64,000 bases of DNA from Minisyncoccota bacterium (GTDB taxonomy: Bacteria; Patescibacteriota; Microgenomatia; UBA1400; PJMF01): NCBI GenBank assembly GCA_003173865.1, contig PJMF01000012.1:8908-72907 (forward strand), given 5' to 3'. Position 1 is the stretch's first letter, and each line of letters starts with the position of its first letter. Positions 45,077 to 57,661 of this stretch are shown piece after piece. The notes beneath the pieces are model-generated. The model did no database searches. It was not told the origin of the DNA and saw only the letters and a program-made list of their open reading frames with translations. Made by a program: the position numbers and the translations under genes.

Positions 45077-46198
45077 ATGCTTTATATTCCAGAAAATCCT
45101 ACAAGAAAAAACGAATTTCAAGCTTCACTAAGCGAAGTAATAAATATCTTGTTTTCAATTCATCTTCACACTTTCCAAATTGATTCTCAAAGAAAAGAAC
45201 CAAAAGAAGAGTGGAAAAAATTTATCTTAATGGTGGAAGAATGTAAGAGAGAGAATCCTAAGAAAATGACTGAATGTATTGAGGCGCTCAATCATGCAAA
45301 AACAATAATTCTCAAAGCGAGTCAGCACTGGAATGCTCCCTTGGATTTTGGAAGTGCAGAGACCTTATATCCACATTATTCCGGCCTTGACGTAACGCCG
45401 TTCGAAAAATTAAAAAAAGTATTATATGAATCACTTCGGATCGATCTTGATGATCAAAAATCACCAAGACAAGAAAAAATAAACACTCTTATAGGTTGGA
45501 TTCATGACTTAGAAAGCGAACGGTTAACTTTTTTCAATTCTAAGACTCAAACTTTCGAGACAGTAGATTTTTCCGGTGATCAGTTTAATGAAGATTTGAA
45601 AAGAGATCTATTGCAAAGAATGAAACAATTTCTTTTGAGTCAATTAGCTACAATCATTGATGAAGGTCATACGACAGCAACTAAAAAAGTAGATGCTCAA
45701 TACAGTCAGCGAATTGAGATAAAGCATGAGATTGCAAAACAAATCCTACAATCTGTGGATGCTCTTCCGTTAACTCGAGATACTATTCATCAATTAAAGG
45801 AAATTGTACACGCAAGAGCTCGGACAACGGAAGCTTTCTTATATGGAATAAGGGAGGTGGGTATAGATTCTCTTCACTTCCTTGTCCCGAAGGAAGTTTT
45901 TAATAAAGTAGTGAAAATTAAGCAAACTAAACCTCAAGATTTTGAAACACTTCTTGCCCCTTTATATATCAATGCTTACATGCACACATTGTTAGCATTT
46001 GCCGATGTCTTTTTTACTGACAAACAAATTTACACTGATCTTCACCCATCTGCATCCTTAAAACTTCAGCTAAGAAGAACTATCGAGATTATTTCCGCTT
46101 TCCAGTCCAAGTGCGGTTCTTCTTTTTCTGATGAGAAACTGAAACCATTTCAGCAGTTTGTTGCAGACCTAAAGGCACTTGTTAATCAAGAAGATTAA
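45077..46198 (+). CDS. Hypothetical protein (predicted mostly helical)
   Basis: 373-aa AT-rich ORF; no family recognised. Confidence 0.65.
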   Translation: MLYIPENPTRKNEFQASLSEVINILFSIHLHTFQIDSQRKEPKEEWKKFILMVEECKRENPKKMTECIEALNHAKTIILKASQHWNAPLDFGSAETLYPHYSGLDVTPFEKLKKVLYESLRIDLDDQKSPRQEKINTLIGWIHDLESERLTFFNSKTQTFETVDFSGDQFNEDLKRDLLQRMKQFLLSQLATIIDEGHTTATKKVDAQYSQRIEIKHEIAKQILQSVDALPLTRDTIHQLKEIVHARARTTEAFLYGIREVGIDSLHFLVPKEVFNKVVKIKQTKPQDFETLLAPLYINAYMHTLLAFADVFFTDKQIYTDLHPSASLKLQLRRTIEIISAFQSKCGSSFSDEKLKPFQQFVADLKALVNQED

Positions 46199-46240
46199 AA
46201 TACATTGAAGTGCCGGAAATGAACATCCAGAATTTTTCTC

Positions 46241-46270
46241 TTGCCCAGCGGTACTAAAAAATGGTACACT
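46241..46270 (+). promoter_or_regulatory. Sigma70-type promoter of the glyQS T-box leader
   Basis: TTGCCC-N18-TACACT with a TG extension; the predicted +1 is near 46277, the first base of stem I. Confidence 0.65.
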
Positions 46271-46276
46271 AGCCAC

Positions 46277-46415
46277 GTGGCATTGATTGGCTTGGCAACC
46301 GGGAGTCACAAAACAAAGTGGGCAAGCAAAATGTGCAAGCCAACTAGGGTGGAACCGCGATTCTTCATTCATTGGAGAACCGTCCCTATAAAGTATAAAG
46401 TACTTTATGGAGACG
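46277..46415 (+). ncRNA. T-box riboswitch (translational/SD-sequestering), Gly specifier, ultrashort stem I, no stem II
   Basis: GTGGC-ATT-GA-TTGG-CTT[GGC]AA-CCGG-GA-GTCAC (K-turn hairpin); T-box AACTAGGGTGGAACCGCG at 46342-46359; antisequestrator TAGGG/CCCTA and GCG/CGT; the sequestrator 46381-46415 covers the GGAG SD. Confidence 0.88.
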
Positions 46416-48402: not shown

Positions 48403-48430
48403 TTGACAATCCCAGACAGTCCATTATAAT
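48403..48430 (+). promoter_or_regulatory. Consensus sigma70 promoter
   Basis: TTGACA (48403-48408), N16, TATAAT (48425-48430). Confidence 0.85.
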
Positions 48431-48437
48431 TTCCTAC

Positions 48438-48518
48438 ATGTTCGCAGGTCTTTTATACTCTATCTCTAGTCTTCTTCTCCTTATTATTATCAAGGCGCAT
48501 CTCGCTTGGGAGAAGTAG
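48438..48518 (+). CDS. Leu/Ile-rich attenuator leader peptide MFAGLLYSISSLLLLIIIKAHLAWEK
   Basis: The ATG lies at the predicted +1; tandem LLLLIII codons at 48471-48491; a terminator follows. Confidence 0.75.
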   Translation: MFAGLLYSISSLLLLIIIKAHLAWEK

Positions 48519-48541: not shown

Positions 48542-48567
48542 ACCCCTCTCAAGCAGAGGGGTTTTTT
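48542..48567 (+). terminator. Attenuator terminator
   Basis: ACCCCTCT-CAAGC-AGAGGGGT-TTTTT; the competing pairing is GCTTGGGAG (48504-48512) with CTCTCAAGC (48546-48554). Confidence 0.85.
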
Positions 48568-48583
48568 GTTTTAGAAAGGTTTT

Positions 48584-51277
48584 ATGAGTAGTAACAAAGG
48601 AACTGCGGAATCTAGGATTCTTGCTTCCAGTGAAATTTTTCATCAAGAAGAGCAGTTAAAGCAGGCGGCAGATAACTTATCTAAACGTTGTTTTAATGCA
48701 ATGTTTAACAGAGCCGTTCAAACATCTGGAAATCTTCAAGAAACAAAGCTACCTAAAAAAGGCCAAAAAGGCGAATCTATTCAAGCAAAGCCTATGCTGG
48801 GATACCGTCGACCAGGCGAGTTTTTTTCTGTCCAAGGTATAGATTCTCAGCAAGAACTTGAAGCTATTTTTAATAGTCTTATTCTCAATGCCCTGCGTAA
48901 ACTCGCAGCGGAAGCAACAACTCCCGAAGAGCGAAAATTGAAAACCGAAATGCTAGGGATGGTGTTACCCGATTTTATTAGAGCATTAGTTTTAGATGGC
49001 GAGTTCATTGATCATATTCATGCAGATGATATTTCAAACATAGTAGATATTGCTTTAGATTGGTTCCTCCATCCGGAATTAGTCTCTCTGACACAAATTA
49101 AAATCGGTTTTGGAGGTAATGAGGAAGCGAACAGTCGTATGCCTGCTTATCCAATCAGTGCAATTCGTACTGCCGAAAGAGTCCAAGAAACTTTTGGTAG
49201 ACATCGAAACTGGGCGCTCTTAAAAGAGTTATATAAACTGACCGAAAAATCTGAAGACATTCGCCAGGCTTTAGAACTACACACAGAAGAATTTCTTTTT
49301 GTGAAAAGACAGGATGATGCTTCAATACCAACTCACGATTCAAGTACATACAGTGAGTTTGTACGAGACGAGCTTGCGAACTGTCAATATGTACGTGTTC
49401 AAGATGTTACTATGATCTTGCTAAAAACTTTTGCAGCTCTTGGTCACCCTTTAACCGAAAAAGAACAGGTTTCTCTGGCCCAAAAATATCACTTCACGGA
49501 CCAAACTCCTACTTTAGTATTTTTTAATGCTGCTCACGCAGCAATTACTATTAACTCGATGAATCGAGAGGCGGTCTTACAAACCCGCGAATACAACAAA
49601 GCTTTGATCACTGCCTACATGTCGGAATTTCATCCAGATCTTCCTATGCCTATATTTCAAAATGATCGAGATTGGAGTGAACATGACTCTTTCACCAAAC
49701 TCATGATTCTCTATGCCCAATTTGTCATTGAAAGTCATAGAGACGAAATGGGTGGAGTCGATGATCAGTTAGAGTCATTTGAAGCAAATCACCGTCAGAA
49801 TGCAAAAAGTACTCATTATGGAATGAATCCTGCCAAAATTTACGGATCTCTTCATCCATATTTCTTTGGTGATTCTCCCAATACCGAGAGCGGTGACCAA
49901 CTTCCTTTCAACAACGTGATGACTCCTCTTTTCCAACCTCGTCATATCGTTGGCCATCAAGGTGTCCCTGAGGTTACTTTTGGTGTCTATAGAGACGTTT
50001 TCAAAAGACATGCCAATCTACGAGATCTAGTGGAATGGTTAAAAAGAACAGAAAATTTGTCAAAAACATCCCTCTCTCAACTAGCAATAGAAGTTGATAC
50101 AAAGGTCATGGAAGCAGAAACACCTTCTTATGGCAAGAGGTTAATCGACTATATCACTAAAAAGGTGATGCCAGAAGCCAATATTGTTTCAACATCCAAA
50201 AACAAATTGCTGGAGAAGGCAAAGCATTTAAGGAATGAAGAGAACTCAGAAGTAGCCAGACAAGAATGGCTCTCCTTTTGTGCAGAACTTCAGTCTGAAG
50301 ATATTTTTGCTAAAACTGGAGTGACTGCTGACGAAGTAAGTAATGCGTTAATTCAAGTTCAAACTTGGCAGAGTGAAGCAAGAAATTTAAACGAACGTCT
50401 CTTTGCAACTACTGACCCAGATCAGCGTTTTGAAATCACAGAGCAATTGGCCGATTCATCTATTCCTATTCCAGTGCGAAGCACTGTGCGTATTGGAACA
50501 TCTGTGGGAAAACATGCCACTTATTATCTCAAAGAAGGTGATACACCTTTAGAAGGTTTCCACTCGGCTGATCAAATTTCATTAGTAAACTATACTCAAC
50601 GCTTTACTGCTGCAAGTTTGAATAAGCGCACTTTAGAAGGAACTGTTCCTTACACACAAAAAAATGTCTTGCCTGCTCTCATTGATAGTGACACCTCAAG
50701 AGGATGGGATATTTTTGCAGCCGCTTTAGCCGATCAATTGGGAACTATCTTTGGTGAAGAAGTATTTGCTCAATGGATGTCGGAAGACGTTGATAAAATG
50801 GCGAATCTTTATCGAGGCTCTGTTCAGGAAGAGCTAACATTTCAAGGAGATAAAGTAGAAAAAGCATCTCACGTTCATAATTTTCTTAGTCAAGGTATTC
50901 AAAACATCGCAGAAGAAAGAATTCAGGTCATCTTGGATGAAGCAGCACATCAAGGTATTACTTTAGAAACTCAGGGAGTCCGCCACTATGTATGGTCCGC
51001 CTTAGTTGGCTCATGGACCACTGAAGGTGGTAAGCAAGCGATTACTGATTCAGAAGTCATTGTCGACGAGATTCGAAGCACTATGTCCGACTTTATGGTC
51101 ATACTTCACGATGTCGCTCAGGCAAAAGGATATCATGGTTCTTCTGAAGAATTGGCCAAGGATGCTGGATGGATTGCTCTAGCAGAAAGAGAGTATCAAA
51201 AGGTAATGAGAAAAATATTCGCTGAGGATCAAGTAAACAGCGACGCTGTGCTGTTTGCTGCTGTGGCTGAGATTTAA
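48584..51277 (+). CDS. Large hypothetical protein (897 aa) with a possible Rossmann/HUP-like core interrupted by helical inserts
   Basis: Long ORF with RBS AGAAAGG; motifs IKIGFGG, LVFFNAAHAA, YGSLHP, IVGHQGVPEVTF and TYY. Confidence 0.8.
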   Translation: MSSNKGTAESRILASSEIFHQEEQLKQAADNLSKRCFNAMFNRAVQTSGNLQETKLPKKGQKGESIQAKPMLGYRRPGEFFSVQGIDSQQELEAIFNSLILNALRKLAAEATTPEERKLKTEMLGMVLPDFIRALVLDGEFIDHIHADDISNIVDIALDWFLHPELVSLTQIKIGFGGNEEANSRMPAYPISAIRTAERVQETFGRHRNWALLKELYKLTEKSEDIRQALELHTEEFLFVKRQDDASIPTHDSSTYSEFVRDELANCQYVRVQDVTMILLKTFAALGHPLTEKEQVSLAQKYHFTDQTPTLVFFNAAHAAITINSMNREAVLQTREYNKALITAYMSEFHPDLPMPIFQNDRDWSEHDSFTKLMILYAQFVIESHRDEMGGVDDQLESFEANHRQNAKSTHYGMNPAKIYGSLHPYFFGDSPNTESGDQLPFNNVMTPLFQPRHIVGHQGVPEVTFGVYRDVFKRHANLRDLVEWLKRTENLSKTSLSQLAIEVDTKVMEAETPSYGKRLIDYITKKVMPEANIVSTSKNKLLEKAKHLRNEENSEVARQEWLSFCAELQSEDIFAKTGVTADEVSNALIQVQTWQSEARNLNERLFATTDPDQRFEITEQLADSSIPIPVRSTVRIGTSVGKHATYYLKEGDTPLEGFHSADQISLVNYTQRFTAASLNKRTLEGTVPYTQKNVLPALIDSDTSRGWDIFAAALADQLGTIFGEEVFAQWMSEDVDKMANLYRGSVQEELTFQGDKVEKASHVHNFLSQGIQNIAEERIQVILDEAAHQGITLETQGVRHYVWSALVGSWTTEGGKQAITDSEVIVDEIRSTMSDFMVILHDVAQAKGYHGSSEELAKDAGWIALAEREYQKVMRKIFAEDQVNSDAVLFAAVAEI

Positions 51278-51307
51278 TATTTGATCGTGCTAAAATGAGA
51301 CATTTGT

Positions 51308-52429
51308 ATGAAAACAGACATCATTGAAGTATTGACTAAGCTTGTTTCATTCCAAACAGTGTCAGCTACAAGTGATCAAGAAAAAAACGCATTCCACGCT
51401 CAGCAATTTGTTGAAGCACACGAATACATCAAGCATTTATTTCAAGACACTCCCTTAATTGTTGAGACTATTGAAACTGCTGGTAAAAAAACTCTTACTG
51501 TTTCAAATAAAAAAACGATCGCTCCTGATATTGCAATGATTGTGCATTTAGACGTAGTCCCAGCCGGGGAGAGCTTATGGACAATGCGACAAGAGGGCGA
51601 TAGGCTCTTTGGTCGAGGCGTTTCCGACATGAAGGGCAGTATTACCGCCTGTTTAATAGTGATGAGAGAATTAGTAAAAATGAAATCAAATGATTTGCCT
51701 TCAGTCATGTTAATTATCACCCCCGACGAAGAAATCGGTGGTGCCTCAATGAAATTTCTACGTGACAAATTAAAATACTCTCCTCAATTTGTGCTTTGTC
51801 CTGACGGCGGTTATGGGTGGAAAATGGTTACGAATGCAAAAGGATGCCTACAGTTTCACTTTCAAACAACTGGAAAATCTGCTCACGCCTCACGACTCGC
51901 TGAAGGAGTGAATGCAGCAGAACCCCTGATTGAATTGTACCAGCAGCTACGTCGTGTTTTTCCCCATCAAAACGAAGCAGCTTGGGAAACAACAACTTTT
52001 AATTTAGGAGCCTTTCATACAGGTCAAGCCGCTAATCAAGTTCCAGATTTGGCAGAAATGAAGCTAGACTTTCGTTTCACTAATCAAAGTGAACGAGCGC
52101 TAATTGAGAAAGAACTCCAATCTGCAATCAACGCAAGTCCGTTAGAAATTAAAACTCTATCAGTCGTTGATGGTCATTTTTTTGAATCCAATCCTAATCA
52201 TCAAATCACGAAAAAATTCCTTTATTGTGTAGAAAAAGTGATCGGCAAACAGATTGAATTTGTAAAAGAGTACGGTGCTTCTGACGCAAGGTTCTTTACA
52301 GACGTGCCAACAGTTGTTTTGATCGGAGACGGGAAATATCATCATTCTTCAAAAGAAGAAATGTCTTTAACGAGTTTGGAACAATATGCCGAAGCAGTAC
52401 TAACATTTATTAAGAGTTATCGCCAATAA
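51308..52429 (+). CDS. M20 family metallopeptidase/deacylase (ArgE/DapE-like)
   Basis: HLDVVP, GRGVSDMKG, DEEIGG, GKSAHAS, NQVPD, GASDARFF and HS..E motifs. Confidence 0.93.
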   Translation: MKTDIIEVLTKLVSFQTVSATSDQEKNAFHAQQFVEAHEYIKHLFQDTPLIVETIETAGKKTLTVSNKKTIAPDIAMIVHLDVVPAGESLWTMRQEGDRLFGRGVSDMKGSITACLIVMRELVKMKSNDLPSVMLIITPDEEIGGASMKFLRDKLKYSPQFVLCPDGGYGWKMVTNAKGCLQFHFQTTGKSAHASRLAEGVNAAEPLIELYQQLRRVFPHQNEAAWETTTFNLGAFHTGQAANQVPDLAEMKLDFRFTNQSERALIEKELQSAINASPLEIKTLSVVDGHFFESNPNHQITKKFLYCVEKVIGKQIEFVKEYGASDARFFTDVPTVVLIGDGKYHHSSKEEMSLTSLEQYAEAVLTFIKSYRQ

Positions 52430-53381
52430 GGGTGAGAAAATTTGGCATCAAAACCTCGCGAGGTCTATTCGTTTTTCTTTCCCAGATCTGTCTTTGAAGG
52501 TCAGCCAATCCCTGCGTACCACGTTCTTGAGTAATGGCTTGAGCTCTTAATAAAACTATTGCTGCGAGCATCGCATTCGTTATTTCAGGATGATTTTGAA
52601 CAGAGACAATGGGCCTATCTTTATAACTCAGCATTTGATTCTTGCCGGCACAATTAGATGCAAGTACATCGGCATTTTTGGGTTTTTGAGAAACATGTTG
52701 CGAATGAGTCGCTGAAATAGTGAGAGAATCTCCTTCATAACAATGAAGTAAAGGTTCCGATTTCGCCCTTTCAGTCAGTTGAATATCAACAGGGCCAATC
52801 TCCCGTTCTCTATTACCTCCAGTAGAAGTCATCCAAGAAACCTCTCCGCCCTGACAAAACGCAAACAACTGATGACTAAAACAAATGAGTAAACTCGGAG
52901 TTTGACTTAACGACAACACTTTATCAAAAGCAAGTACCCGTCTAATCCAAGGAGCATCCTGATGATGCATATCATGGATTGTTGTGACCATTGCCTCGGA
53001 TCCAGACATAATCACCCCATCGTACTCTTCCAACTGACGAGGAGGAGATGTTTCACCCTGACTTGCATGCCATACTTCAAAACGCTCATCATGTGGACTA
53101 AAACCAAGTTGGTAACGAAAAATATCGGAAACCGTATGATTACCCGAATGACCTACAGCGCCTATTTCGAGTAATTTTCTGCGCTCAGAGTTGAGTGGAG
53201 CAAAAAGACCATTTCCCCACCGTAATGCTAACTCTACAAACAAGATTTTAGATTGAGTCCTCAATTTATCGGCAACAACTCTTATCATTTCACGATGATG
53301 TGTTTCAGTATCTGCAATCTCTTCCTCACAACATTGTTTCTCTTGCTGAGTTAATGGAGAACTTATTTCTGCGAATGCCAT
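52410..53381 (-). CDS. Type 1 glutamine amidotransferase-like hydrolase (standalone, GMP-synthase-like/gamma-glutamyl peptidase type)
   Basis: GVIMSGS, LICFSHQ (nucleophile Cys), EIG, HSQHV and QNHPE (His-x-Glu) motifs. Confidence 0.85.
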   Translation of the reverse strand: MAFAEISSPLTQQEKQCCEEEIADTETHHREMIRVVADKLRTQSKILFVELALRWGNGLFAPLNSERRKLLEIGAVGHSGNHTVSDIFRYQLGFSPHDERFEVWHASQGETSPPRQLEEYDGVIMSGSEAMVTTIHDMHHQDAPWIRRVLAFDKVLSLSQTPSLLICFSHQLFAFCQGGEVSWMTSTGGNREREIGPVDIQLTERAKSEPLLHCYEGDSLTISATHSQHVSQKPKNADVLASNCAGKNQMLSYKDRPIVSVQNHPEITNAMLAAIVLLRAQAITQERGTQGLADLQRQIWERKTNRPREVLMPNFLTLIGDNS

Positions 53382-53384
53382 ACA

Positions 53385-54494
53385 TTAATCCAATATTAGT
53401 TTCTCTACCGTATATTTCTTCAGTTTCATTTCATCGACTTCAAAACCCAACCCAGGCGCTGTCGGCACTTGAATATTTCCCTCGAGGTCAACAGTAAAAC
53501 TGTCTTTTACCAAATCATCTTTGTAGTAAAAACTATTTGGAGACATGTCTGCGGGATCAATAAAGTTCGGCAACGAAGCAACTGCAATGTTAAACGCTCG
53601 TCCAATACCTGTCTCAAGCATGCCACCACACCATACCCCCACATGTTGGGCTTGGCAAAGATCGTGAATTTTTTTACTTTCTAAAATACCGCCTACACGA
53701 CCGGGTTTGATGTTAATAATTTTGCAAGCACCAAGAAAAAGTGCTTTACGTGCATCTTCCACTGACAAAATGCTTTCATCTAAACAAATTGGTGTTTTAA
53801 TTTGCTTTTGCAGCACAGAGTGATCGACAATGTCGTCATCTCCAAGTGGTTGCTCGATCATTGTCAGATTATATTGATCAAGTTCTTTAAAAATCTCGAT
53901 CTGGTCGAGTGTAAACACAGAGTTTGCATCAACCATCAAGGGAACGTCACCAAACCTCGCACGCACTGCTTTGACCAGCTTGACGTCCCAACCAGGCTTA
54001 ATTTTCAGCTTCATACGCTGATACCCTTGAGAAATTCTTAACTCAATTTCTTCCAAAGTCGCCTCAATAGAATCCTTAATCCCAATACTTTCTCCTGCTC
54101 CAATCTTTGCGCGCGTGCCACCAAGCAAAGCCGACAGAGAACGTTCTTCTTGCAAAGACTGGACCATCAATAATGCTGTCTCTAAACCTGTTTTCGCAAA
54201 ATTATGTTTTTTAATAATTTTTAATTCATCCATGACCGCTTGGACTGTGGTGAACTCCTTATTCAAGACGAGCGGCGCAATATAATCGCGCAACACTAAC
54301 ATACAAATATCAGTCGTATCTGGCTTATAAAATGGATACGGCATTGCAGCGGCTTCCCCATATCCAATGAGTCCATCTGCCATTTCAACTTGAACGATCA
54401 CGGTGGCTTTACTTTCCAATTTCCACGAGCTCACTGCAAAAGAAGTGACCATCGGCACATCGACTTTGTAGAGAGTAATTTTTTTTATTTTCAT
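53385..54494 (-). CDS. menC: o-succinylbenzoate synthase / N-acylamino acid racemase (NSAR/OSBS subfamily, enolase superfamily)
   Basis: KLKIK, VDAN, IEQP, LDES, NIKPGRVGG and WCGGMLETGIG motifs; no other men genes are in the window. Confidence 0.9.
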   Translation of the reverse strand: MKIKKITLYKVDVPMVTSFAVSSWKLESKATVIVQVEMADGLIGYGEAAAMPYPFYKPDTTDICMLVLRDYIAPLVLNKEFTTVQAVMDELKIIKKHNFAKTGLETALLMVQSLQEERSLSALLGGTRAKIGAGESIGIKDSIEATLEEIELRISQGYQRMKLKIKPGWDVKLVKAVRARFGDVPLMVDANSVFTLDQIEIFKELDQYNLTMIEQPLGDDDIVDHSVLQKQIKTPICLDESILSVEDARKALFLGACKIINIKPGRVGGILESKKIHDLCQAQHVGVWCGGMLETGIGRAFNIAVASLPNFIDPADMSPNSFYYKDDLVKDSFTVDLEGNIQVPTAPGLGFEVDEMKLKKYTVEKLILD

Positions 54495-56053
54495 GAAATG
54501 ACAACCTCTCGTAATTGAATTAATTCTCTGAGTGCACGTTCTAGAGACATTGTTTTTTGTTTTTCATTTACAAAAGCGAGGGCTCGATCAGCACCATTTT
54601 GTTTTTGTTGTAACACCCACTGTGGATAAGCCAAGAAAGTTTGCTCTTCTGTAGATAATCCTTCGGCAGCTAAATCCAGGATTCTTTGTGTAAATGTATA
54701 AACCGAAAGATCCTCTACTACTCCGTCTAATCCTTGTTCAATAGCTACATCGCGTAACTTACTGAGTTGTCCCCAAGGAAAATGTTCAATGTATTTTTTT
54801 GTTTTATCTAAATTGCGAATTAAGCCAGCTTGCAATGCCGATGGACTTGTTGCCACCGAAAGTGCAATTTCTTTTCCCGCAGCATAAAGCTCTCGATCAG
54901 GAAGATTTGATCCAGGCGCTCTGCCCTCGATATACATAAAATGCGCATGTGCTTCAAAGATTTCTTCTACTTTCATTTGCGAAGTTTCTTTGCACGCTGC
55001 AACAAACTCCGCAACTGGAAAACCATCTTTTTTCAATGAATAACGAATACGACCTCCTGCTTCAAACTGCGCAAACTGCAGTACTTCCATATGCGCAATT
55101 TCTGGCGAAACTTCATACGCTTTAATAGCAGTTCCCGTAATAATCTCCGATAAATTCCGAGCTTTCCAAGTCTTCCCATCTAAATAATCGAGGACTGGTG
55201 GATTCCCATCCACGATCATGATGTCATCTTTTGCGTTTTTGTAACCAACTGCGCTCTGACTTGGCATCACAAAATAAATACCACTATCGCCACCAAACAT
55301 CCATTGAAAATATTGTGCGAGATTTTGAAATGGTTTATCGGGAAAACGAATCAAACGTCGATCACCAGCAACAGTTGACCCACTCATCATGCGCTCCCAC
55401 ATCATCAAACGATTTTCTTTGTATTGAGAAATCTTTCCTTCCTCAAAAGGACTGTTTGCAAAAAGTGCAATATTGGCCGCACTCGCACCGATGATCACAG
55501 TAAGTGCATCAGCTGCTTGAGAAACAGCAACTTGAGTACTGGGACTATTTTGCGCTCGCGCATCAATTCCAGCCGAATGATCCCAACCACGCTGCCACAA
55601 AAAGTCATACACTCCTTTCGGCACGACAAATTTTTTGTATGTCTTCATGTCTCTTGGAGCAAGTGGGTGAATTGATAGATTTATGGCAAAAGCATCTTCA
55701 GCTTGTAACGCCTTTTGAGTAGTTGAAATATCAAGTTGAATCGCTTTATGTAATTCCTGGAGCGTTTCGAATGGTGGCAAAGCTGTCTCTAATAAATTGA
55801 ATCCATTGTCCAAACCTTGCTCACCAAGATCTTGGCTGACAACTCCTACCGCAACTGTTTTCCCTTTTTTATCCTTTAAATTGTGAAGATGATCAAATGT
55901 GTGACGATGACTTGCCTGTTTGCTTAATTCATTAAAAAACACATCAGTAACATGATGAGAACTCCCGTCCTTTTTAGAAACGATAGTTTTCTCAAGTTCA
56001 GCACCAAATTTTTCGTTTTTCTTGACTAATTTTGACACAGGTGATTTTAACAT
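54491..56053 (-). CDS. Glutamate--cysteine ligase / carboxylate-amine ligase family protein
   Basis: GAELE, DNGFNLLE, HP, Q, ALFANSPF, R...W and IEGR motifs; its stop overlaps the menC ATG. Confidence 0.75.
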   Translation of the reverse strand: MLKSPVSKLVKKNEKFGAELEKTIVSKKDGSSHHVTDVFFNELSKQASHRHTFDHLHNLKDKKGKTVAVGVVSQDLGEQGLDNGFNLLETALPPFETLQELHKAIQLDISTTQKALQAEDAFAINLSIHPLAPRDMKTYKKFVVPKGVYDFLWQRGWDHSAGIDARAQNSPSTQVAVSQAADALTVIIGASAANIALFANSPFEEGKISQYKENRLMMWERMMSGSTVAGDRRLIRFPDKPFQNLAQYFQWMFGGDSGIYFVMPSQSAVGYKNAKDDIMIVDGNPPVLDYLDGKTWKARNLSEIITGTAIKAYEVSPEIAHMEVLQFAQFEAGGRIRYSLKKDGFPVAEFVAACKETSQMKVEEIFEAHAHFMYIEGRAPGSNLPDRELYAAGKEIALSVATSPSALQAGLIRNLDKTKKYIEHFPWGQLSKLRDVAIEQGLDGVVEDLSVYTFTQRILDLAAEGLSTEEQTFLAYPQWVLQQKQNGADRALAFVNEKQKTMSLERALRELIQLREVVIS

Positions 56054-56070
56054 ATCTTTGCTTGAATATT

Positions 56071-56098
56071 TTGCTTTTTTAAAAAAATGCTGTACAAT
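56071..56098 (+). promoter_or_regulatory. Sigma70-type promoter of the Phe leader
   Basis: TTGCTT-N16-TACAAT. Confidence 0.65.
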
Positions 56099-56106
56099 TC
56101 TGGGAC

Positions 56107-56178
56107 ATGTCGAGGCATGAAACATTTACTTTTAGTTTTTTCTTTTTTACCAAACTTCCTCAAAGGGAGCTTTGCTAA
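56107..56178 (+). CDS. Phe-rich attenuator leader peptide MSRHETFTFSFFFFTKLPQRELC
   Basis: The ATG lies 8 nt after the -10; 6 Phe in 8 codons; a terminator follows. Confidence 0.8.
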   Translation: MSRHETFTFSFFFFTKLPQRELC

Positions 56179-56201
56179 TTGAACTGAAAAAGCAACGCAA
56201 T

Positions 56202-56225
56202 AACTCCCTAAAAGGGAGTTTTTTT
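56202..56225 (+). terminator. Attenuator terminator
   Basis: AACTCCCT-AAA-AGGGAGTT-TTTTT; the competing pairing is AGGGAG (56164-56169) with CTCCCT (56204-56209). Confidence 0.85.
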
Positions 56226-56244
56226 ATTTTAAAAAGGAGCAAAA

Positions 56245-57174
56245 ATGATTTCAACTCAAGAAGCAACTAGTCAACGAATCTCTGAAATGGCGCAAGTTAT
56301 TAACAACGCGCTATCCGCAACTCAAGAAATGATGCCCAAATTGATTAATAAAACAGTTCCAGTTGAAAATGCCTCAGGAACCGACATTATTATGGGTATC
56401 GGTCTCGTTTCGAACGGCAAAGTGAGCAGGGGCTTAAATCCGAGTGCCATTCCAATGGCCATAGCAGCCACCAATTTGCAGCGTGAAATCCAACAAAATG
56501 ATTATCGAAGCAAAATTAAGGTGTTAATTGCGGACACGTACGCAAAACAATTCCACAGAGAATATATTAATGCTGCTTACGCCGATGACGATGAACTTGA
56601 TCGAGATCCCGTAGCAGAAGCTGCTGTTTCGATCGAGCAAGCTCTAGGATTGCTGTTCATTGCTCTCGGAGCAACCGCAGATGTTGAAATTATTCGCACA
56701 TCGGATCTTGAAACTCCTAATTTTGAAACTTATGAAGAACAAGAAACCTATCACCTCAGTCGCGCTGTTGAAGAAGGTGCCGGTCTCATCGTCGGTTGGT
56801 CAAGCGAACGAGCACCATTGCCAGGAATGCCACCAGTTCGCGATGAAACCGTGTTTCATCGACATATGGATAAAGAACATCCAGATCTTCGCGGTATGTC
56901 AGGGAGGTTATACACCGTCGAAGGCCTTAGTTTAACTGACCAAATAAAAGGTCAGGCTCAATATGTCCCTCCTTACTTCACGACTCGAGTTGAAGCAGCT
57001 CTGGGCACAATTGTCGATTTAGAAGGACTAATAGACAAAAAAAACCAATTAAAAAATTTCTTTAAAGAGGTGGGGAGAGCACTTCGTAAAATTTTGCCAG
57101 GCGAAAAGACGGATGGGAAAGGTGATTTGCAGATCGTTCATGAACTGGTGAGAGAAATCGCTACTCAGGTGTAA
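56245..57174 (+). CDS. Hypothetical protein with a possible class-Ic aaRS/CDPS-like Rossmann fold
   Basis: RBS AAGGAG; motifs IIMGIGL, VLIADTYA, YEEQE, IVGW...DETVF and VPPYF. Confidence 0.8.
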   Translation: MISTQEATSQRISEMAQVINNALSATQEMMPKLINKTVPVENASGTDIIMGIGLVSNGKVSRGLNPSAIPMAIAATNLQREIQQNDYRSKIKVLIADTYAKQFHREYINAAYADDDELDRDPVAEAAVSIEQALGLLFIALGATADVEIIRTSDLETPNFETYEEQETYHLSRAVEEGAGLIVGWSSERAPLPGMPPVRDETVFHRHMDKEHPDLRGMSGRLYTVEGLSLTDQIKGQAQYVPPYFTTRVEAALGTIVDLEGLIDKKNQLKNFFKEVGRALRKILPGEKTDGKGDLQIVHELVREIATQV

Positions 57175-57183
57175 AATCTGCAT

Positions 57184-57211
57184 TTGACTCAGTCCGAAAA
57201 TCACATATAAT
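57184..57211 (+). promoter_or_regulatory. Sigma70 promoter
   Basis: TTGACT-N16-TATAAT. Confidence 0.8.
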
Positions 57212-57221
57212 TTAATGTCAT

Positions 57222-57296
57222 ATGTTTTCAAAGAATTACGTCATTGCTGTTATGCGCCAAGCCCTGCACGCAGGGGGAGGGTTTTGGATTTCGTAA
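57222..57296 (+). CDS. Putative attenuator leader peptide MFSKNYVIAVMRQALHAGGGFWIS
   Basis: First ATG downstream of the predicted +1; the ORF spans the protector and antiterminator segments. Confidence 0.5.
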   Translation: MFSKNYVIAVMRQALHAGGGFWIS

Positions 57297-57322
57297 AAAT
57301 GTAAAACATTTATTTAAAAATC

Positions 57323-57353
57323 AAAACCCCTCTCCAAACCAGAGGGGTTTTTT
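57323..57353 (+). terminator. Attenuator terminator
   Basis: AAAACCCCTCT-CCAAACC-AGAGGGGTTTT-TT; the competing pairing is GAGGGTTTTG (57277-57286) with CAAAACCCCTC (57322-57332). Confidence 0.85.
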
Positions 57354-57373
57354 GTAAAAGGAAGGAGTTAGAA

Positions 57374-57661
57374 ATGGAACCTACAATGGATTACAGATTA
57401 AAATTTACGGAAAATGCTTTTAGGCAAGACGACGATTCTGAGTTTTTTGTGATGAGTGCAGCCGTTGAACTCCTACTAGAAGCTCGAAGTGCTCAAGAAG
57501 AAGCATTGTATTGGGAAGCTTTATGTGATTTATTTCCAGCAGCTTATGAAATTATCCGTAAAGAAATCCTTTTTCACGAGTTTACTTCACGAGATTTCAC
57601 TCAGACAGAGCGAAAAATTAGTGATCGTTATCGGCTCGTATTTGAACATCCTGAAAAATGA
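57374..57661 (+). CDS. Small acidic hypothetical protein (95 aa)
   Basis: Strong RBS AAGGAG right after the terminator; no family recognised. Confidence 0.6.
   Translation: MEPTMDYRLKFTENAFRQDDDSEFFVMSAAVELLLEARSAQEEALYWEALCDLFPAAYEIIRKEILFHEFTSRDFTQTERKISDRYRLVFEHPEK

Follow-up and report, generated by a model that had tools for sequence, protein, structure and literature searches.

The cyclodipeptide synthases (CDPSs) of the AlbC family (PF16715) derive from the class-Ic aminoacyl-tRNA synthetases and have lost the ATP motifs of their ancestors. They are defined by a serine after β1 (Ser37 in AlbC; PMC2922099, PMC7731078) and the Y-x3-E motif of AlbC corresponds to Tyr178 and Glu182 (PMC7731078). 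The fungal arginine-containing CDPS (AnkA/AvaA) is tRNA-dependent as well, and works with a catalytic Cys and a DDXXE motif (PMC11610942). Here we compare with these enzymes, and with tyrosyl-tRNA synthetase (TyrRS), two proteins encoded in a window of 64,000 nucleotides (G000:C7:8908-72907) from the patescibacterial genome G000 (1.2 Mb, 95% complete). Neither P0002 (309 aa; 56245-57174, + strand) nor P0001 (897 aa; 48584-51277, + strand) has a Pfam or NCBIfam match above cut-off. P0002 belongs to an undescribed family within a known kind of synthetase-derived proteins, of which a variant matched to its regulator, for Phe, occurs here; a literature search, covering mostly listings and the beginnings of abstracts, found no description of the family.

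P0002 is predicted to be a protein of the class-Ic fold, that of TyrRS and tryptophanyl-tRNA synthetase (TrpRS), without ATP motifs. Its AlphaFold model, built on 14 sequences, has a pLDDT of 81.5 and a pTM of 0.83, and Foldseek gave 17 matches at E < 0.001 with TyrRS at the head, all those listed being TyrRS (best E 2.1e-5). A wide structural search (VIA) likewise placed TyrRS first (Z 14.9, 14.6 and 13.6) and TrpRS next (about 12). The best match was the TyrRS of A. pernix (Z 14.9; root-mean-square deviation 3.4 over 234 aligned residues), and the modelled fold resembles both this archaeal enzyme (2cya) and the human one (1n3l; Z 14.6) over residues 7-309. CDPSs followed more weakly (Z 10.4, 9.4, 8.9, 8.6 and 8.4), as did PvcA (Z 8.6), and most CDPS alignments reach only about residue 228 while those with TyrRS run to residue 309. 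Judged by the model, P0002 is thus nearer to a whole TyrRS than to a CDPS, and tRNA binding is suggested by the retention of the TyrRS C-terminal part. Comparison of family and TyrRS profiles (hhalign) gave E 4.6e-5, and PF00579 was touched weakly by 4 of 14 family members (best E 0.01). The likeness to class-Ic/CDPS cores that had been proposed from sequence motifs therefore stands for P0002 on the TyrRS/TrpRS side, as a predicted fold, and weakens on the CDPS side, where the protein has no GxS serine and lies further off.

Relatives of P0002 were found by profiles alone; as a single query it retrieved only itself among 3334 candidates, and nothing from 300 other genomes of the class. Profile searches recovered 24 proteins among 1.84 billion representatives, and the family in 14/286 genomes of the order, 11/301 of the class and 5/401 of the phylum, counts that include G000; one of the five phylum genomes, G493 (E 7e-4), was afterwards dropped because its match is an unrelated-looking open reading frame (ORF). 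A viral scan and a genome-contig scan gave no match. A paralog, P0004, lies on contig C8 of G000 (G000:C8:18726-19553; 29% identity to P0002). Our alignment holds 36 sequences, of which 32 are full-length members that look distinct and the rest are distant; the short fragments P0023, P0024, P0026 and P0027 were excluded. Invariant in it, by P0002 numbering, are G51, G53, Y163, W185, D200, E201, F204, P243 and Y244. The motifs picked in P0002, IIMGIGL (48-54), VLIADTYA (93-100), YEEQE (163-167), IVGW (182-185), DETVF (200-204) and VPPYF (241-245), are therefore the conserved core of its family. A sequence scan confirmed that HIGH and KMSKS are missing from P0002, where SRGL and EGLS...PPY take their places. 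The two histidines of HIGH and the catalytic lysine of KMSKS are gone; in the family the HIGH position typically reads S-x-G-L or S-x-A-I/V, and the loop of KMSKS is degenerate; the pattern scan flagged one member of the 36 (P0018), by eye a chance match near the C-terminus.

With CDPSs the family shares the class-Ic descent, the loss of ATP motifs together with a Y-x3-E (Y163-x3-E167 in P0002) and a predicted monomeric state. Unlike them it has G-x-G after β1 in all 36 members and hence no CDPS serine, is controlled by starvation, and is not matched by the CDPS profile PF16715 (none of 14 members gave a match up to E 1, and neither did the G000 genome). It is thus CDPS-like as an ATP-free class-Ic derivative, yet no member of the CDPSs. 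AnkA/AvaA resemble P0002 as tRNA-dependent enzymes with an acidic motif, but in a comparison by motif description, not by profile, their catalytic Cys and DDXXE do not appear among the invariant columns of the family (D-E-x-x-F-D). The likeness to TyrRS comprises an ADxH strand, the Y-x3-Q/E-x2-D pocket and D-E where TyrRS has D-Q; P0002 differs in lacking HIGH and KMSKS, in its invariant Trp and the loop after β4, in a His for the pocket Asp and in overall identity (12%). The stretch from β3 to the pocket Tyr, which holds the CP1 insertion used by TyrRS for dimerization, is 46 residues long in TyrRS, 10 in P0002 and 9-24 in 34 of the 36 members, so that the dimer interface is probably gone and a monomer is predicted.

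In TyrRS the Asp of the pocket pattern Y-x3-Q-x2-D (YPLMQGYD) binds the Tyr hydroxyl. All 36 members keep Y-x3-E/Q (E in 25, Q in 11), and the Asp at +7 is present in 31. Five members depart from this, with His170 in P0002, Ala in P0022 and an Asp displaced by one position in P0017; the other two are P0029 and P0028. The tree joins P0002 and P0022 as sisters (support 99/88), so their loss of the pocket Asp looks like one event, which would fit the exchange of a Tyr T-box for a Phe attenuator. The family is Tyr-linked by default and the Phe-controlled P0002 is a derived variant, with a pocket altered as one would expect for Phe. The proposal that P0002 is specific for Phe is favoured by its regulator and by the change of Asp to His, in a family that is otherwise linked to Tyr.

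The P0002 gene follows promoter-like hexamers (TTGCTT ... TACAAT; 56071-56098, +; a consensus match alone), a leader peptide of 23 aa with six Phe codons within nine (56107-56178, +; 6 Phe/23 residues, binomial P=0.0009) and an intrinsic terminator (56202-56226, +), against which GGGAG of the leader can form an alternative antiterminator. The P0001 gene has the same arrangement, with a sigma70-like promoter (TTGACA ... TATAAT; 48403-48431, +; called by consensus match alone), a leader of 26 aa with four Leu codons and then three Ile (48438-48518, +; Leu/Ile 11/26 residues, binomial P=0.002) and an intrinsic terminator (48542-48568, +) whose alternative antiterminator pairs with the 3' half of the leader. 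Both leaders therefore show, in predicted folds, the hallmarks of ribosome-mediated attenuation (an amino-acid-rich leader, a terminator and a mutually exclusive antiterminator), and the description of both genes as attenuated holds. In G000 a like design precedes thrS, whose leader contains a run of Thr, and also an ORF-cysS operon, whose leader contains Cys codons, and for this reason we take the leaders of this genome to report their cognate amino acids. In the Cys case (G000:C4:18100-20443) an attenuator with 5 Cys/24 stands ahead of a 256-aa ORF of no assigned function, with cysS directly after. The paralog P0004 lies behind a T-box with a UAC specifier (74 bits against a gathering score of 93; E 2e-15). 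A gene of the P0002 or P0004 type, switched on when its own amino acid runs short, would be expected to provide that amino acid or to free its tRNA.

In the other genomes the family is tied to Tyr by its surroundings. The nearest TyrRS gene is no more than about 1.1 kb away from the family gene in 20 of 23 genomes, and tRNA-Tyr stands directly upstream in 13 of 23, counts that are not independent, the genomes being kin; the exceptions for tyrS are G907, where the contig ends, and G516 and G585, with none in the surrounding DNA covered. The order T-box(UAC), tRNA-Tyr, family gene, tyrS is frequent, and translational coupling to tyrS is tight in many of these operons. Ten of these loci have a T-box called by Rfam, and a standard UAC specifier loop is found in 10 of the 11 T-boxes called when that of P0004 is included (the one in G140 has a short stem). 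Short-stem T-box-like leaders with a common GAGAATTTTTACAC also stand upstream of tRNA-Tyr in L018, L019, L020 and L024, of which Rfam calls L024 only. In many operons tRNA-Tyr ends 2-3 nt before the ATG of the family gene, leaving a ribosome-binding site no room. Both G000 genes, P0002 and P0004, lie away from tyrS; the tRNA-Tyr of this genome is truncated by the end of contig C26 and was missed by ARAGORN, and no tRNA-Asn was called.

Genes for tRNA editing or chirality also adjoin family members, namely Dtd (G097, L045), a YbaK-type tRNA_edit protein (G216, L048) and a B3/4-TyrRS fusion (G060, L046), and an aminotransferase is the neighbour in G863. A distant member in G585 (L077; hhalign probability 92.8) has a Tyr/Trp/Phe-rich leader before it and a gene of the Asp/Glu-racemase family after it. 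The fusion (L046:5874-7739) is a TyrRS with an N-terminal B3/4 editing domain and stands behind an ORF that by eye resembles TrpR. Archaeal-type TyrRS genes, again by eye, adjoin family genes in Patescibacteria at L047:2440-3531 and L048:1462-2592.

Between the P0001 and P0002 genes the window encodes four enzymes that may form a gamma-glutamyl-based pathway for converting D- to L-amino acids (51308-56125). They are an M20 (ArgE/DapE) family deacylase (51308-52429, +; domain match), which begins 30 nt after the P0001 gene and is likely on the same transcript; a class I glutamine-amidotransferase-like (GATase-type) hydrolase (52410-53381, -) with a weak Peptidase_C26 match and its Cys and His-x-Glu kept; an NSAR/OSBS-type enzyme of the enolase superfamily (53385-54494, -; TIGR01928, 342.7 bits against a cut-off of 200.65); and a GCS2-family carboxylate-amine ligase (54491-56125, -; PF04107, E 3.7e-9), which is divergent from the P0002 gene. 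The NSAR/OSBS enzyme has KxK, D189/E214/D239, K263 and R266, and no menD was found in G000 (0/1 genome, 95% complete), which makes it likely to be an N-acyl-amino-acid racemase. K263 and R266 mark the NSAR/OSBS subfamily (PMC12006748). A comparable NSAR/OSBS pathway dates from 2006, as cited in the same paper. That pathway reportedly includes a GNAT succinyltransferase and an M20 desuccinylase. Common to it and the window are an NSAR/OSBS enzyme with K263/R266, an M20 deacylase and no menD found. The window differs in having the GCS2 ligase and the GATase-type hydrolase where the acyltransferase would be, and this replacement suggests gamma-glutamyl as the acyl group.

Similar gene sets accompany the family elsewhere. 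In G019 the genes for a GCS2-like protein, enolase, GATase, family protein and TyrRS lie on one strand; in G516 the order is GCS2, family gene, enolase; and G720 has genes for M20, histidyl-tRNA synthetase and a D-Ala-D-Ala-peptidase-like protein, together with an enolase gene that converges on the family gene. Near-full-length MR_MLE_C matches numbered four in 58 genomes (24 family-positive and 34 family-negative), in G000, G720, G516 and G019, each of them no further than about 2 kb from a family gene. Other matches were partial, those of G707 and G097 lying elsewhere in their genomes, and the remaining ones are presumably glycolytic enolase for the most part.

TyrRS and phenylalanyl-tRNA synthetase (PheRS) can load D-isomers. 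We tentatively favour, at somewhat less than an even chance, the reading that the P0002 family removes D-Tyr or D-Phe from tRNA without ATP and feeds a D-to-L salvage. Phe shortage would turn on P0002 through its Phe-rich attenuator; the TyrRS-derived protein would then bind aminoacyl-tRNA through the side chain and strip D-Phe from it in an ATP-independent reaction, freeing tRNA when L-Phe is short, and the Tyr-linked relatives would act likewise on D-Tyr. Catalysis may fall to the invariant W/D-E-x-x-F/P-Y residues, and the released D-amino acid could be turned into the L-form by N-gamma-glutamylation (GCS2 ligase), the NSAR-type racemase and the GATase/M20 deacylases. We prefer removal of D-Phe/D-Tyr because the pocket is kept, the ATP motifs are lost, a monomer is predicted and the neighbours include tRNA-editing and chirality-inverting enzymes. 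By analogy the role would be that of Dtd and the YbaK/ProX trans-editing factors, whose genes adjoin family genes and whose folds are unrelated to that of P0002. Several points weigh against this. A TyrRS-type pocket should accept the L-form too, and the residue equivalences to TyrRS rest on alignments, not coordinates. Dtd is encoded in 6 of the 24 genomes that have the family and in 9 of the 34 that lack it, and adjoins the family in one, so that a simple replacement of Dtd by the family is not supported. Most members, those of 19 of the 23 other genomes, have no racemase gene in the surrounding DNA examined. The enolase-linked members of G720 and G019 are sisters in the tree and so not independent, in G720 the enolase and family genes converge and share no operon, and the editing genes may adjoin tyrS for reasons of their own.

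The same neighbours would also serve an enzyme acting on the amino acid rather than on its tRNA. The pocket could take free or conjugated D/L-Tyr or Phe and either acylate it, possibly with another aminoacyl-tRNA as the donor, or release it from conjugates of the N-acyl or peptide kind, and so provide one step in a D-to-L conversion with the racemase and deacylases. The operon of G019 that joins GCS2, enolase and GATase to the family gene, the GCS2 and enolase genes on either side of the family gene in G516, the racemase-family neighbour in G585, induction on shortage, which fits supply, and the invariant acidic pair D200-E201 all speak for such a salvage transferase or hydrolase. Where GCS2 is present, however, an enzyme for the acylation is already in place, most members have only tRNA-Tyr and tyrS beside them, and the TyrRS C-terminal part kept in the model points to tRNA; we regard it as unlikely, if a serious contender. 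A kept pocket with lost ATP motifs would equally suit a non-catalytic sensor of the amino acid or of uncharged tRNA, or an accessory subunit of a synthetase. HisZ, a pseudo-enzyme, offers the analogy, and the tight coupling to tyrS in many operons agrees. The dimer-forming insertion is largely deleted, though, both G000 copies lie away from tyrS with one following Phe, and invariant polar residues beyond the side-chain pocket suggest chemistry, all of which makes a sensor or subunit rather improbable. As for a CDPS-like enzyme that consumes Tyr- or Phe-tRNA for a small peptide, stands in the Tyr regulon for its substrate supply and has GCS2 and an epimerase as tailoring enzymes, the structural kinship to CDPSs and PvcA (Z 8.4-10.4 and 8.6) argues for it, as does a Y-x3-E like that of AlbC (Tyr178/Glu182; PMC7731078). 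The missing GxS serine and the starvation switches of the stand-alone copies, under which such an enzyme would spend a scarce substrate, leave it distinctly unlikely; expression induced by shortage is the opposite of what CDPSs need.

An aminoacyl-tRNA ester is higher in energy than a peptide bond. Loading of tRNA without ATP from peptides or cyclodipeptides would therefore run uphill, which makes doubtful the model of the sequence-only reading, an ATP-free transacylase that charges tRNA with Phe (and, for P0001, Leu/Ile) taken from scavenged donors. That model agrees with the starvation-type control of the two genes and with the absence of ATP motifs, and the weak look-alikes in the atlas include CDPS-containing clusters (0.87; 24-32% of members with PF16715); but it needs an activated donor such as host aminoacyl-tRNA, there is no acyl-enzyme serine (G-x-G in 36/36) and the kinship of P0001 is unproven, and we hold it to be quite improbable. 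The least probable reading of all is that the family are genuine back-up synthetases whose ATP site is non-canonical, which would make P0002 a PheRS of class-I fold. The whole-TyrRS architecture and the fact that T-boxes and attenuators typically govern synthetases (cf. thrS and cysS in G000) favour it; the HIGH histidines, the KMSKS lysine and the dimer insertion are gone, and canonical enzymes are present. G000 has canonical Tyr, Trp, Phe(alpha) and Ile/Val/Leu-type synthetase genes, so P0001 and P0002 are ruled out as replacements of missing synthetases. Its PheRS alpha gene (G000:C20:54337-56169, -; 610 aa) appears to be fused to an N-terminal domain that by eye resembles an AlaX/tRNA_SAD editing domain.

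P0001 is best explained as a Leu/Ile-starvation gene co-transcribed with the M20 deacylase. It too lacks HIGH and KMSKS, and carries in the order proposed IKIGFGG (172-178), LVFFNAAHAA (311-320), YGSLHP (420-425), IVGHQGVPEVTF (455-466) and HATYY (644-648). The motif series is therefore real in both proteins; that it is shared beyond chance was not confirmed, since its chain score was matched by 25 of 150 shuffles of P0001 and by 9 of 150 shuffles of its homolog. This homolog, P0003, represents the single homolog family (30% over 608 aa; word search, 8000 scored candidates) and keeps most of the motif residues, which fall on conserved blocks. No further homologs were found in the atlas, the viral scan, the metagenome scan or 400 genomes of the phylum (0/400), nor any PDB sequence match under E 0.5, and the 15 loci found in a motif-pattern search for relatives were all judged chance. 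A fold model from the two sequences is poor (pLDDT 35, pTM 0.27). Direct comparison of P0001 and P0002 by BLASTP gave E 0.98, and hhalign of the two-sequence P0001 profile with the P0002 family gave no significant match (E 0.5, 0.34 and 0.71 with 2, 14 and 36 sequences), so the claim that the two are paralogs is neither supported nor refuted. Some support comes from the β1-α1 segment alone on the register first proposed (3/40 shuffles, 0/18 other segments), which is both the best hhalign segment and the best match in the segment test; the segments of this test were chosen with the proposed motifs in view, and its power is low, a true control of P0002 family against TyrRS passing in only 1 of 4 segments. 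P0001 against TyrRS gave E 0.79 by hhalign, with β3 on the expected register. That P0001 is kin to the P0002 family, as a much more distant equivalent, is possible, with the balance somewhat against it.

A TyrRS-derived family with T-boxes or attenuators on the gene itself has been selected to appear when its cognate amino acid is short, and the natural Tyr/Phe pair in G000, in which a change of regulator goes with a change of pocket residue, offers a direct handle on substrate and mechanism. If the removal of D-amino acids is correct, the family would provide a class-I-fold editing factor and a new route of D-to-L salvage, and would explain how amino-acid auxotrophic bacteria of the candidate phyla radiation cope with the D-amino acids of their hosts. 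More speculatively, and in our view rather unlikely, Patescibacteria may hold a class of synthetase-derived ATP-free enzymes, each with a pocket and a starvation switch for Tyr, Phe or Leu/Ile (P0001), that would remove aminoacyl groups from tRNA or transfer them there, in connection with gamma-glutamyl D-to-L racemization; these auxotrophs could then obtain usable charged tRNA from the D-amino acids, or the aminoacyl-tRNA, of their hosts.

Two further leaders occur in the window. A weak T-box match (30.9 bits) lies upstream of a glycyl-tRNA synthetase gene at 46172-46389 (G000:C7:55080-55297). A third promoter-leader-terminator unit (57184-57661) precedes a 95-aa ORF that has no NCBIfam match and overlaps the end of a recJ-like gene; its leader (57215-57304) contains a Cys-Cys pair, and an alternative short frame is also present.

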